A stretch of 60,487 bases of DNA, from IMG/VR virus record IMGVR_UViG_3300018481_000002, positions 87,199-147,685 of that record; one strand, 5' to 3'. How positions within the stretch are numbered: the first letter of the stretch is position 1; each line of letters begins with the position of its first letter. The DNA comes from a virus. Lineage: Duplodnaviria > Heunggongvirae > Uroviricota > Caudoviricetes. The translations under genes and the position numbers were made by a program. Positions 19,642-21,553 of this stretch are shown here, one piece after another. The notes under the pieces were generated by a model. That model did no database searches, was not told where the DNA came from, and saw nothing but the letters and a program-made list of their open reading frames with translations.

Positions 19642-19733
19642 ACACCTTGCCCTACCTAGCCAGGCCGAACCCGGCCCTGCCTAGCACTGCCTTGCCCAAC
19701 CTAGCCATTGCCTAGCCTGGACTTGCCGAGACC
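19642..19733 (-). ncRNA. GGY-NN pentamer array D (candidate guide RNA)
   Basis: Minus strand: ggtct(c) ggcaa gtcca ggcta ggcaa(t) ggcta ggttg ggcaa ggcag tgcta ggcag ggccg ggttc ggcct ggcta ggtag ggcaa ggtgt. Confidence 0.8.
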
Positions 19734-19736
19734 GAC

Positions 19737-19780
19737 AGAGTATCGAACACTTGAACGAAGGCCAAGTGTCGGGGTACTGT
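19737..19780. promoter_or_regulatory. Divergent overlapping promoters with an SOS-like box
   Basis: Plus: TTGAAC(19751)-18-TACTGT; minus: TTGGCC(19765)-17-TACTCT; box TCGAACACTTGAACGA at 19743-19758. Confidence 0.7.
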
Positions 19781-19785
19781 TCCTT

Positions 19786-19905
19786 CGCTTGGCGTAGCTA
19801 GGCGGGGCTTGGCAGGGCCTGGCACCGCATGGCTTGGCAGAACAAGGCTCGGCCTGGAGGGGCTCGGCTAGGCCCGGCAGGGTGGGGCAAGGCTAGGCAG
19901 GGTAT
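19786..19905 (+). ncRNA. GGY-NN pentamer array A (candidate guide RNA)
   Basis: 24 units in perfect 5-nt register; 19/24 start with GGY and 23/24 have a pyrimidine at position 3. Confidence 0.85.
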
Positions 19906-19919
19906 AACTAGATCAGCGA

Positions 19920-19996
19920 CGCGGGGTGGAGCAGTTCGGTAGCTCGTCGGGCTCATAACCCGAAGGTCGTGGGTTCAAATCCCACCCCCGCTACCA
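19920..19996 (+). tRNA. tRNA-fMet (CAT), initiator type
   Basis: C1:A72 mismatch, three G-C pairs in the anticodon stem, loop CTCATAA, encoded CCA. Confidence 0.95.
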
Positions 19997-20002
19997 AGAC
20001 GA

Positions 20003-20047
20003 GGCGAGGCCGGGCAGGGCCTGGCACCGTGGGGCACGGCAAGGCAG
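20003..20047 (+). ncRNA. GGY-NN pentamer array B (candidate guide RNA)
   Basis: ggcga ggccg ggcag ggcct ggcac cgtgg ggcac ggcaa ggcag, starting 6 nt after the tRNA CCA. Confidence 0.75.
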
Positions 20048-20107
20048 GGGTTCCCCACCCGCCCTAACAGACGACGCTCCTATCTCGACTACCTAGTAGG
20101 AGGCGAC

Positions 20108-20314
20108 ATGAGGGGACTCTTCCCTGAGAAGGACCTGCCCAGAGCGTTGGGTGTGAAGGTCTTCGGTGAGCCCAAGGCGCAGGCTCAGATCAACAGCCCG
20201 GACAAGGCGGGTCCGACCATCGCCAGGGACAAGACGTGCTGGTGTGGCCGTCCGTATCCGCATGACTGGCTGGGCCAGGAGGACGGTGCCGCGCATCCGA
20301 GGTACCCGGACTGA
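20108..20314 (+). CDS. Small hypothetical protein (CWC...H motif)
   Basis: GGAGG RBS; 68 aa. Confidence 0.7.
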   Translation: MRGLFPEKDLPRALGVKVFGEPKAQAQINSPDKAGPTIARDKTCWCGRPYPHDWLGQEDGAAHPRYPD

Positions 20315-20320
20315 TTTCCC

Positions 20321-20358
20321 TCGAACACTTGCACGAGGTGGTTTGTAGCGTCTACAGT
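20321..20358 (+). promoter_or_regulatory. Promoter with an SOS-like box upstream of array C and the RAMP gene
   Basis: TCGAACACTTGCACGA overlapping TTGCAC-18-TACAGT. Confidence 0.7.
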
Positions 20359-20369
20359 GCACACACCAT

Positions 20370-20431
20370 GGCATGGCAGAGGCTCGGCTAAGCGCGGCAC
20401 TGCACGGCCAGGCAGAGGCACGGCAAGGCAA
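20370..20431 (+). ncRNA. GGY-NN pentamer array C (in the 5' leader of the RAMP gene)
   Basis: ggcat ggcag(a) ggctc ggcta agcgc ggcac tgcac ggcca ggcag(a) ggcac ggcaa ggcaa. Confidence 0.8.
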
Positions 20432-20462
20432 CAACCACACATGAAGCCATTGGAGGCTCAAC

Positions 20463-21044
20463 TTGAAGGTAACCATCGAGATTGACGGCACCCAGCCGCT
20501 TCTCATGCACGCAGACACCCTCGCGGACCCGCTGGACCCGCTGACCAAGGAGTTCAAGCGACTCTCCGGGAAGCGGTCCAAGACCGACGAGGACCACGAG
20601 GCCATGGCGGAGAAGGAGTTCCTCGCCAGCCTCTACCTCGATGACGGCGGCGAGATCTGCATCCCCGCAGCCAACATCAAGAAGTGCCTCATCGAGGGAG
20701 GCCGCATCACCAAGTCCGGGGCCAAGATCGAACGTGGCCTCACGCTCCTGGGCATCGACTTCGTCCTGAAGCACACCGGTCCGGCACTCCCGGCTGACCT
20801 GTACCAGGACCCGAAGTTCGTGGACAGGCGTTCCGTGAAGGTCGGCACCGCCCGCACCATGCGTGTCCGTCCCCGCTTCAACGACTGGTCCCTGCGAGTG
20901 GAGTGCGACATCGACCCCGCCGTGTGTTCCATCGATGACCTGAAGGACATCGCGACCAACGCCGGTTCCCTGGTGGGTCTCGGTGACCACCGCAAGATCG
21001 GCGGATACGGACGTTTCGTGGCGAAGGTGAGGAAGAACCCGTGA
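20463..21044 (+). CDS. Stand-alone RAMP / Cas7-like RNA-binding protein
   Basis: Beta1 VTIEIDGTQPLLMH, IPAANIKKCL helix and Gly-rich loop GLGDHRKIGGYGRF; GGAGG RBS, TTG start. Confidence 0.85.
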   Translation: MKVTIEIDGTQPLLMHADTLADPLDPLTKEFKRLSGKRSKTDEDHEAMAEKEFLASLYLDDGGEICIPAANIKKCLIEGGRITKSGAKIERGLTLLGIDFVLKHTGPALPADLYQDPKFVDRRSVKVGTARTMRVRPRFNDWSLRVECDIDPAVCSIDDLKDIATNAGSLVGLGDHRKIGGYGRFVAKVRKNP

Positions 21045-21553
21045 GGCCGTTCGCGCCGAAGGGTGAGCAGCCTGAGTGGCGGATGCTCTACGACCTGGTT
21101 ACGGGTTCGGCTGTAGACACGGTGTTCCCGTACGACGACTTCGACCGGGCGCTTGGTCGGGACTTCCGGGAGAACCGGACCCCCCTGGCCCGTGTACAGA
21201 AGGAACTCCTGCGGGAGGACAAGCGGGTCCTGGTCAACGTACGCGGCGTCGGGTACCGGATCGCTCAGGCTCGGGAGCACGGCGAACTGGCTGTGGGTCA
21301 GCGGCAGCGTGCCCGTCGTGCCGTGGACAAGGGTGTTCAGATCGTTGCTGGCGCTGACCAGTCCTCTCTGACCCCGAAGGAACGGCAGCGGCTGACGGAG
21401 ATCGAGGTCAACCTGCGTGCTCAGGCGAACATGCTTCGCCGGACTGAGGCTCGGGTGGCCGTTTTGGAGAAGTCCGCGAAGCATTCGGACGACCGTCTGG
21501 ACATGCTGCTGGCTGAACTGAAGCGGAAGGGCTTGGTCGAGACGATCGACTAA
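21041..21553 (+). CDS. Winged-helix-like plus coiled-coil protein coupled to the RAMP gene
   Basis: GTGA overlap; wing motif NVRGVGYRI; C-terminal heptads. Confidence 0.75.
   Translation: MRPFAPKGEQPEWRMLYDLVTGSAVDTVFPYDDFDRALGRDFRENRTPLARVQKELLREDKRVLVNVRGVGYRIAQAREHGELAVGQRQRARRAVDKGVQIVAGADQSSLTPKERQRLTEIEVNLRAQANMLRRTEARVAVLEKSAKHSDDRLDMLLAELKRKGLVETID

Follow-up and report, generated by a model that had tools for sequence, protein, structure and literature searches.

A probable type II-like VIPR system with dispersed guide arrays and an initiator tRNA between two of them in an uncultured phage

Introduction

In a window of 60,487 nucleotides taken from the IMG/VR record of an uncultured phage, we have identified a locus that we assign, with a probability of about 0.9, to a complete type II-like system of the VIPR (Viral Interference Programmable Repeat) class. 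The window belongs to a phage genome of 147.7 kb, which according to the IMG/VR record contains direct terminal repeats and is rated 100% complete by CheckV. Our assignment builds on homology, protein fold, residue conservation, the anatomy of the arrays and the co-occurrence of arrays and vipr in relatives. The system appears to be type II-like as judged from its 40% identity to the Vipr of SUSP1 and the presence of a vap1 homologue, and not from the phylogeny by which the authors of the class distinguish types I-VII. The class itself is already known from work published in 2026 and the locus brings no new principle. Distinctive are the distribution of its guide genes over three sites and an initiator tRNA placed between two of the arrays.

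VIPR, a viral CRISPR-like pathway of RNA-guided DNA silencing that was first published in 2026 (bioRxiv 10.64898/2026.04.26.720920), is described in this discovery preprint and three subsequent ones, among them those on its structure determined by cryo-EM (10.64898/2026.04.26.720927) and on its natural function (10.64898/2026.10.15.759431). It is defined by tandem YNNGG (GGY/NN) repeats of at least four units flanking vipr, in which GGY is conserved and NN is variable. One protomer binds each repeat, sequesters GGY with a pocket that excludes purines at the third base and presents NN to target double-stranded DNA with a one-nucleotide skip (NN-x). VIPR thus employs a non-contiguous RNA code for DNA recognition and has been proposed to predate CRISPR. 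The published guides (vrRNAs) contain 9-16 units each, are roughly 100 nt long and co-purify with Vipr. The type II architecture has so far been characterised in enterobacterial and Pseudomonas phages. In the SUSP1 system (vipr agp039, vap1 agp038, four vrRNAs, PDB 36pp), a vrRNA is located upstream of vipr and the system is an experimentally proven trans-acting DNA silencer, and in the SUSP1 clade the repeat tract is followed by a structured pseudoknot 3' tail.

Results

An earlier note on this DNA had described an ORF of 193 residues containing the segments PLLMH, IPAANIKKCL and GLGDHRKIGGYGRF as a stand-alone RAMP protein, which it related to the VIPR class. The ORF is present as described and is the first gene of a two-gene operon:

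20463-21044, plus strand: vipr, encoding a minimal RAMP protein of 193 aa with a TTG start
21041-21553, plus strand: vap1-like accessory gene, encoding 170 aa and overlapping vipr by 4 nt (GTGA)
20108-20314, plus strand: 68-aa ORF with a Cys/His motif, located between arrays C and D

This class exists, and the ORF is homologous along its entire length to the SUSP1 Vipr of known structure, with conserved contact residues. In phmmer searches, it matches PDB entry 36pp_D (SUSP1 Vipr) with an E-value of 9.1e-38 over residues 3-189 (4-189 of SUSP1), a tblastn comparison to SUSP1 gives an E-value of 6e-40 and both proteins fall into the same PHROG (phrog_4652, E 1e-50). The roles of the residues contacting GGY and DNA are known for SUSP1 (10.64898/2026.04.26.720927). 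In the alignment, H16, K32, R136, D175 and R177 of the phage protein correspond to H17, K33, R138, D177 and R179 of SUSP1, all of which are identical, while SUSP1 W178 is replaced by H176 in a column that contains Y, W, H or F and is thus mostly aromatic or His. The AF2 model of Vipr (pLDDT 96.9) shows a β-hairpin, the thumb, at residues 120-139, which bears R136, and a G-loop with the sequence GLGDHRK at residues 172-178. The proposed RAMP/Cas7-like fold is borne out by this model and by a Foldseek search of the PDB, where the 50 matches listed (best E 3e-6) are headed by Csm3/Cas7 and consist almost entirely of Cas7-group RAMPs from type III and VII complexes (Csm3, Cmr, Cas7-11/gRAMP), with two Cas6 entries in addition. 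Pfam contains no match for either Vipr or Vap.

The protein shares with Cas7/Csm3 of class 1 CRISPR systems (types III and VII) the RAMP fold with its RRM core, G-rich loop and thumb. Cas7/Csm3 and Vipr proteins both assemble into polymers on a guide RNA, where each subunit has a fixed footprint and one base per repeat is flipped. Conversely, the VIPR footprint spans 5 nt, of which three bases are sequestered, and its reading of double-stranded DNA is gapped. The top structural matches superimpose with a TM-score of about 0.5 and share a sequence identity of 9-16% with Vipr. In agreement with the earlier note, no cas gene is seen among the ORFs beside the locus, and a run of Tandem Repeats Finder on the window detects no repeat of the CRISPR kind. 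In light of these features, the locus is not a member of CRISPR-Cas.

The downstream ORF is related to SUSP1 vap1 (BLASTP E 1e-9) and belongs to phrog_5926, which also contains SUSP1 vap1, gp77 of the Gordonia phage MakoManhole and the vipr neighbours in two further relatives (L008 and L009). Its AF2 model (pLDDT 95.9) consists of a winged-helix-like N-terminal domain followed by two long helices, for which Foldseek finds weak winged-helix matches only (E of at least 0.02), and in a profile search with Vap no PDB sequence reached significance. The 68-aa ORF is missing from the closest relative, a contig termed L036 whose Vipr is 86% identical, and is therefore no core part of the system.

The operon is surrounded by arrays of pentameric units, of which the earlier note had placed four near the ORF and a fifth 10 kb away with about 80 units in total. 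We find all five, with about 77 units:

19644 to about 19706-19708, minus strand: vrRNA array A, 13 in-phase NNGGY units and, after a 1-nt shift, four further units upstream, to 19729
19789-19903, plus strand: vrRNA array B, 23 units sharing a single phase, including a degenerate AGAAC unit (AAC at 19841)
20001-20045, plus strand: vrRNA array C, 9 units, then one GGG unit in the same phase and a short tail
20368-20429, plus strand: vrRNA array D, about 13 units in the vipr leader with two 3-nt AGA spacers
30151-30227, minus strand: vrRNA array E, about 15 units and 1-nt shifts, downstream of the minus-strand ORF 30236-30595 in its 3' UTR

Array B probably comprises two guides of 10 and 12 units that are split by the degenerate unit. 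Array A heads towards a bidirectional terminator hairpin at 19576-19596, its 3' flank being a 23-nt tandem repeat of 2.5 copies in Tandem Repeats Finder, and array E is located just before a terminator hairpin at 30119-30142. The predicted structure of the array transcript is unremarkable (z +0.71), as would be expected for a guide that is coated by protein. Of the public sequencing runs listed for this stretch, none is recorded as RNA.

If the arrays were plain pentanucleotide DNA repeats, generated by slippage or serving as iterons at the DNA level, they would have no function as RNA and neighbour the RAMP gene by chance. Nothing specific speaks for this possibility, apart from the general property of G+C-rich genomes to yield some GGC-rich low-complexity DNA. 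As a control, we generated 30 first-order Markov shuffles from the window's own dinucleotide transitions, sampled without replacement, and counted arrays of at least five exact GGY units. These composition-preserving shuffles contain 0.03 such arrays per window, none exceeding five units, compared to six blocks of up to 12 exact units in the phage DNA. The units are strand-specific, with GGY fixed and NN variable within arrays and different between them, whereas slippage would produce identical copies. Finally, such arrays are found together with Vipr homologues in eight unrelated contigs, one of them that of the experimentally characterised SUSP1. The predicted association of homologues with GGY/NN arrays is thus found at all eight Vipr-homologue loci that could be read (from SUSP1, MakoManhole, two IMG/VR contigs and contigs of Logan, JGI and ENA), where arrays are located beside vipr. 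This co-occurrence effectively refutes the plain-repeat explanation, which we regard as extremely improbable.

A search for related loci with a narrower Vipr alignment resulted in two loci. In L036, GGY and a promoter-like element are kept while some of the NN have changed: array D is homologous to the leader array of this contig, with some changes in NN, and array C has a counterpart with a near-identical NN string, which is there located downstream of vipr.

Outside the window, we found five further plus-strand arrays of 28, 21, 17, 16 and 11 units (93 in total) at positions 77165-78436 of the genome, about 9 kb before the start of the window and 29 kb upstream of the locus. With these arrays, the whole genome contains at least 10 arrays with about 170 units, at three sites distributed over 40 kb. 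Array B (23 units) and the distal array d1 (28 units) are both longer than the 9-16 units published per vrRNA. The distal arrays, termed d1-d5, share their genome with vipr and are hence not orphan; so-called solo vrRNAs are now read in the literature as anti-VIPR decoys.

The ends of the arrays follow a pattern. Seven of the 10 terminate in an AA unit, and after six of the 10 there is a GGR unit in the same phase together with a short CAC motif. These ends are also found in three relatives (L006, L007 and L008). According to the published work, purines are excluded from the pocket for the third base, and the in-phase GGR unit thus suggests a way in which the growth of the filament is stopped. 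A pseudoknot tail of the SUSP1 type is not evident after the 10 arrays.

The region between arrays A and D contains promoter-like elements and a tRNA gene:

19737-19780, both strands: divergent promoter-like region between arrays A and B
19751-19780, plus strand: promoter-like TTGAAC-N18-TACTGT inside the box TCGAACACTTGAACGA (19743)
19765-19737, minus strand: promoter-like TTGGCC-N17-TACTCT, read from the sequence
19920-19996, plus strand: initiator-type tRNA-Met (CAT) that has a C1xU72 mismatch and an anticodon stem with three G-C pairs and whose CCA is encoded
20321-20358, plus strand: promoter-like box TCGAACACTTGCACGA with TTGCAC-N18-TACAGT ahead of array D and vipr, kept in L036

The box TCGAACACTTGAACGA recurs at 20321 and at 1962, and for four of the arrays a dedicated promoter seems to be present. 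A strict scan for the E. coli consensus found nothing, and the promoters at 19737-19780 are thus putative.

The location of the arrays relative to genes raises the question of whether they act mainly in cis, with Vipr coating GGY/NN tracts in leaders and trailers of phage mRNAs, including its own leader with array D, and thereby tuning translation or stability. Such a role would agree with the placement of several arrays within the 5' leader or the 3' UTR of a protein gene, where d1, d5 and D stop a few nucleotides short of Shine-Dalgarno sequences and start codons and E follows a stop codon. Still, SUSP1, whose vipr is likewise preceded by a vrRNA, is experimentally a trans-acting silencer of DNA, the NN strings are hypervariable among arrays and relatives, a variation that a pure binding platform would not need, and several arrays seem to be preceded by promoters of their own. 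We therefore consider a mainly cis-acting role improbable and retain the interpretation of the arrays as trans-acting guides.

The tRNA-Met follows array B after 16 nt and precedes array C by 4-6 nt, with no terminator in between. The junction between tRNA and array is kept in L036, which suggests that host tRNA processing releases guides. In such a scenario, array B, the tRNA-fMet and array C would form one transcript starting from the promoter at 19751-19780, from which RNase P and the nucleases maturing tRNA 3' ends would excise a functional initiator tRNA and in the same process set where guide B ends and guide C begins, with one vipr serving guides distributed over 40 kb. We propose this scenario tentatively and regard it as possible, somewhat short of an even chance. 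The tRNA could equally be an incidental phage tRNA gene that resides in the same intergenic island and plays no role in the maturation of guides, a reading that we rate at even odds and that opposes only the secondary claim of tRNA processing. It is consistent with the presence of genes for tRNA-Lys, tRNA-Arg and a tmRNA-like RNA 2 kb away, with the lack of arrays adjoining the other three tRNAs of the genome and the lack of a tRNA beside the array in the loci of the other seven relatives, and with a search of the viral contig collection for the pattern of this tRNA 3' end followed by an array, which gave 0 matches. Moreover, the only relative keeping the junction is 86% identical in Vipr, for which plain synteny could suffice. 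On the other side, the spacing is very tight in the uninterrupted stretch from B to C, and in L036 an array with different NN directly abuts the CCA despite rearrangement of the surrounding DNA. Published vrRNA arrays of type I and V VIPR are interspersed by hammerhead ribozymes (fig. S19, 10.64898/2026.04.26.720920) and thus use self-cleaving or processed RNAs as punctuation. In three VIPR-focused preprints, the word tRNA does not occur; the cryo-EM structure paper is not among these.

To characterize potential targets, we searched for sequences matching the guides under the NN-x rule. The published method employs nhmmer and requires at least 80% NN match. In the phage's own genome, we detect no self-target above a shuffled-unit control, in line with what is reported for the published systems. 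Our scans of sequence collections required exact guide cores, from which true targets with mismatches would escape. The array A core (9 units) had 0 matches in the viral contig collection and 15 in the genome contig collection, which equals the chance estimate, with none of them being actinobacterial and none extending. The d4 core (8 units) had 26 viral matches, none extending, B2 (10 units) had 0 matches in the metagenome contig collection, d2 (9 units) had 11 in metagenomes (best 29/42, not significant) and the conserved array C had 0 viral matches. Cross-targeting between the phage and seven related VIPR loci remained at control level in both directions, as did a codon-level search of the guides against 265 Vipr/Vap homologues for vrRNAs targeting vipr. 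With no natural target found under the one-nucleotide-skip rule, a role against competitors is an analogy only, by which the system would likely silence mobile elements that compete with the phage in its host (other phages, prophages or satellites).

The phage is jumbo-like, uncultured and high in G+C (61%). The ORFs and genes flanking the locus encode the major capsid protein, the 68-aa protein, tRNAs and an HNH protein. In a megablast search of the locus against cultured phages, the tRNA is the sole match, and no close cultured relative was found for the major capsid protein. The host is perhaps an actinobacterium. A WhiB gene is not found in the phage genome, and relatives L008 and L009 contain one each.

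Discussion

The architecture of the locus suggests a mechanism in which transcription of the arrays, loading of Vipr, silencing of DNA and the identity of targets are what we infer. The arrays, at least 10 in number, would be transcribed either from their own σ70-like promoters or together with neighbouring genes, whose leaders and trailers they would form. By homology to SUSP1, one Vipr protomer would bind each pentamer, with H16 and D175 reading the first G, R136 of the thumb and H176 holding the second, and R177 together with a pocket formed by helix 1 and the G-loop restricting the third position to pyrimidines. In the helical filament formed in this way, NN would be displayed for pairing with double-stranded DNA under the NN-x rule, leading to a triplex R-loop that blocks transcription, and the Vap1-like winged-helix protein may assist as in SUSP1. 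The earlier proposal that each subunit grips GGY and displays NN as a discontinuous code is the same as the published VIPR mechanism; the class itself had already been published.

The system resembles the type II VIPR of SUSP1 in the full-length homology of Vipr, its contact residues, the vap1 homologue directly downstream, the GGY/NN repeat, present both in the vipr leader and in further arrays close by, the phage context and the absence of detected self-targets. It differs by its G+C content (61% compared to 40%), host lineage and GGC-rich instead of GGT-rich repeats, and by the presence of at least 10 arrays at three sites over 40 kb instead of four vrRNAs beside the operon, with some arrays reaching 21-28 units, no pseudoknot tail seen and an initiator tRNA between two arrays. 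The closest homologues from a cultured phage are gp78 and gp77 of MakoManhole (PQ184807.1; Vipr 46.8% identity, Vap E 1e-13), where vipr and vap equally overlap and a GGY/NN array is found immediately upstream with more downstream, whereas this phage has a genome of 61.6 kb and few arrays, none of which adjoins a tRNA. In its record, the two proteins are labelled 'hypothetical protein' and 'DNA binding protein' and not VIPR.

As in the hammerhead-interspersed vrRNA arrays, a structured RNA directing cleavage would be placed between adjacent guide tracts of a presumed single transcription unit, although it is a self-cleaving ribozyme in the former and an initiator tRNA with putative host processing in the latter. 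In engineered polycistronic tRNA-gRNA arrays used for CRISPR multiplexing, a tRNA recruits RNase P and RNase Z to free individual guides. Whereas these constructs are synthetic, the order of B, tRNA and C would be a natural arrangement.

Our results extend the type II architecture to an uncultured jumbo-like phage of high G+C content, which is probably actinobacterial and whose guide repertoire is unusual in both size and dispersion, containing at least 10 arrays with about 170 units compared to four vrRNAs in SUSP1. The tRNA-flanked guides offer a concrete clue to the biogenesis of vrRNAs, which is largely open in the preprints. If guide release by tRNA processing holds true, the arrangement would be the natural equivalent of the engineered tRNA-gRNA design and would add a third mode of vrRNA punctuation to the staggered and hammerhead modes.

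Arrays of putative guide RNAs and the organization of the locus

VIPR systems have been defined as combinations of the protein Vipr, vrRNAs (guide RNAs) of 9-16 YNNGG repeats followed by a 3' tail and vap genes, which fall into seven types with a mostly viral distribution and whose NN dinucleotides recognize DNA with a one-nucleotide skip (10.64898/2026.04.26.720920). In structural studies, one protomer is found per repeat and the complexes form triplex R-loops (10.64898/2026.04.26.720927), and two later preprints address natural function, 'solo' vrRNAs and VIPR arrays recovered with a language model (including 10.64898/2026.10.15.759431). 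The locus described here is a genuine and apparently intact type II-like member of this class. The earlier note had likened it to the class and raised the question of novelty: the class is real, but since it is already published it is not new, and the locus adds one more member. The mechanism that the note had proposed, a filament whose subunits grip GGY and display NN, is essentially the published one.

The 193-residue ORF with the motifs quoted in the note is present and ringed by strand-specific arrays of 5-nt units, in which GGY is fixed and NN variable. The main features of the locus are:

19644-19729, minus strand: array A
19789-19903, plus strand: array B
19920-19996: tRNA-Met, separated from array B by 16 nt and from array C by 4-6 nt
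20001-20045, plus strand: array C
20368-20429, plus strand: array D
20463-21044: vipr
21041-21553: vap1-like ORF
30151-30227, minus strand: array E

The five arrays, one of them farther off as claimed, total about 77 units, close to the proposed 80. In the window we find six blocks of up to 12 exact GGY units each, compared to a chance expectation of 0.03 arrays of at least five such units, and composition-preserving shuffles never exceeded five units. As expected from the note, Tandem Repeats Finder detected no CRISPR-like repeat in the window.

The window corresponds to positions 87199-147685 of an IMG/VR virus record of 147,685 bp, which has direct terminal repeats and is rated complete. 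This genome contains five more plus-strand arrays (d1-d5; genome 77165-78436) of 28, 21, 17, 16 and 11 units, identified in a whole-genome scan, which alternate with small Cys-rich ORFs. As vipr is present in a single copy (genome 107661-108239), 29 kb downstream of these distal arrays, the latter are no orphans, and guide genes at three sites would be served by one Vipr. The NN dinucleotides contain 41% G+C vs 62% in the genome, with the first N being depleted in C. Small Cys-rich ORFs with zinc-ribbon-like CxxC pairs are located between arrays at genome 77313-77480 and 77637-77918 and at window 20108-20314, the last of which is missing from the closest relative, a 1,076-bp Logan contig (L036) encoding an 86% identical Vipr. 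Arrays B and C have three consecutive units (AG, CT, AC) in common (19811-19827 and 20013-20029) and the NN string of array C recurs as near-identical copy 3' of vipr in L036 (985-1032); guide cassettes therefore appear to have been duplicated and moved between positions.

Vipr, its partner and their relatives

The vipr ORF starts with TTG and is preceded by a Shine-Dalgarno sequence (GGAGG at 20452). It has no match in Pfam and one strong match among PDB sequences, the 'SUSP1 Vipr protein' of a type II system from an Escherichia phage (36pp_D, E 9.1e-38, residues 3-189 of 193), with which it is grouped in phrog_4652. Its AlphaFold2 model, based on an alignment of 38 homologues, has a pLDDT of 96.9. 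In line with the proposed Cas7/Csm3-like RAMP fold, the 50 PDB matches listed by Foldseek, whose library is older than the VIPR depositions, consist almost entirely of Cas7-group RAMPs from type III/VII CRISPR complexes (Csm3, Cmr, Cas7-11/gRAMP) along with two Cas6 entries, at a TM of about 0.5 and 9-16% identity. The residues named as contacts of GGY and target in the cryo-EM study, H17, K33, R138, D177 and R179 of SUSP1, correspond in an alignment to H16, K32, R136, D175 and R177 and are all identical, including the three whose substitution by alanine abolishes silencing (10.64898/2026.04.26.720927). W178 is replaced by H176 at a position where most homologues have Y, W, H or F.

The vap1-like ORF (170 residues) overlaps vipr by 4 nt and is related to SUSP1 vap1 (29% identity, E 1e-9) and to gp77 of Gordonia phage MakoManhole (E 1e-13); all three fall in phrog_5926, as do the genes 3' of vipr in two metagenomic relatives, and an exhaustive HMMER search assigned 834 representative clusters to the family. 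Its AlphaFold2 model (pLDDT 95.9) shows residues 12-74 as a winged-helix-like domain and, after it, two long helices, with weak Foldseek matches mostly to winged-helix DNA-binding domains. This fits the published description of type II Vaps as predicted DNA binders. In natural infection, SUSP1 requires both Vipr and Vap1 (10.64898/2026.10.15.759431).

Among eight loci with Vipr homologues of 40-86% identity (SUSP1, MakoManhole, two IMG/VR, two Logan, one JGI and one ENA contig), GGY/NN arrays adjoin vipr in every case, an association whose absence, according to the note, would have refuted its reading. In the 101-kb JGI contig 3300078045, about 3.8 kb of near-continuous arrays (10808-14603, more than 40 blocks) follow the Vipr homologue; short conserved tails (type ATGGACC...CTTTCA) separate the blocks, and called ORFs of up to 499 residues over these arrays are probably spurious. 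The cultured actinophage MakoManhole (PQ184807.1) carries an unannotated VIPR system in genes 78 and 77, where gp78 ('hypothetical protein') is the Vipr and gp77 ('DNA binding protein') the Vap1 homologue, with one array directly upstream of the former and others downstream.

Promoters and ends of the arrays

Arrays A and B diverge from a 60-bp spacer. A box of the sequence TCGAACACTTG[A/C]ACGA, which contains TTG(A/C)AC-N18-TAC(T/A)GT, precedes arrays B and D, and similar hexamers are found upstream of d2 and d4; these putative array promoters are read from sequence, and a scan for strict E. coli consensus promoters found none. If one substitution is allowed, the 16-nt box TCGAACAC(T/C)TG(A/C)ACGA has three copies in the genome (window 1962, 19743 and 20321, plus strand), the latter two before arrays B and D, and it probably serves as a common promoter or operator.

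Arrays d1, d5 and D lead into the Shine-Dalgarno sequence of the following gene, and array E is preceded by a stop codon and ends at a terminator hairpin. The last unit is AAGGY in seven of the ten arrays. An in-phase GGR unit follows six of ten arrays in this genome, all eight in two IMG/VR relatives and five of six in one Logan relative. Because the third-base pocket of Vipr excludes purines (10.64898/2026.04.26.720927), we infer that GGR marks the end of the filament. A pseudoknot tail of the SUSP1 type is not apparent after the phage arrays. The 3' flank of array A contains a 23-nt tandem repeat (19601-19656; 2.5 copies, about 80% matches) just before a bidirectional terminator (19576-19596); this repeat may be an array tail element.

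An initiator tRNA between two arrays

The tRNA-Met between arrays B and C has its CCA encoded, shows a C1xU72 mismatch and carries three G-C pairs where the anticodon stem meets the loop. These features are hallmarks of bacterial initiator tRNAs. No terminator was found between array B, the tRNA and array C, and a predicted transcript covering all three has no more structure than shuffled sequences (z +0.71). L036 starts with 32 nt identical to the 3' end of this tRNA, directly followed by an array of different NN content; it lacks the 68-residue ORF (20108-20314) and keeps promoter box and array D. The junction is found in none of the other relatives read and at no other tRNA of the phage genome, a scan of viral contigs for the 3' end of this tRNA joined to an array returned no match, and the word 'tRNA' is absent from the three VIPR-focused preprints. 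Arrays interspersed with hammerheads have been described (10.64898/2026.04.26.720920). Processing of guides mediated by the tRNA is a possibility that we regard as somewhat under even odds.

Just downstream of vap, Rfam assigns 82 nt (21661-21742, plus strand) to the tmRNA family RF00023 (55.6 bits vs a gathering score of 47); the match spans model positions 1-374 and covers the tRNA-like ends only, ARAGORN makes no call and the segment looks like a mini-tmRNA-like gene. Between tRNA-Lys and tRNA-Arg, a Cys/His-rich ORF of 135 residues (22117-22524, plus strand) resembles HNH-type endonucleases and lies in this same accessory island, an insertion between capsid and tail genes. A weak tRNA at 1651-1721 (minus strand) scores 39 bits in Rfam vs a gathering score of 29, with no ARAGORN call.

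Targets and role

Searches for guide targets in the phage's own genome, related VIPR loci and sequence collections found none, the collection scans requiring exact cores and thus constituting a weak negative. By likeness to SUSP1 and P. fulva, the system would act against competitors. What distinguishes this member of the family is that its repertoire, about 170 units in all, is dispersed, that an initiator tRNA lies between guides and that arrays are terminated by GGR.
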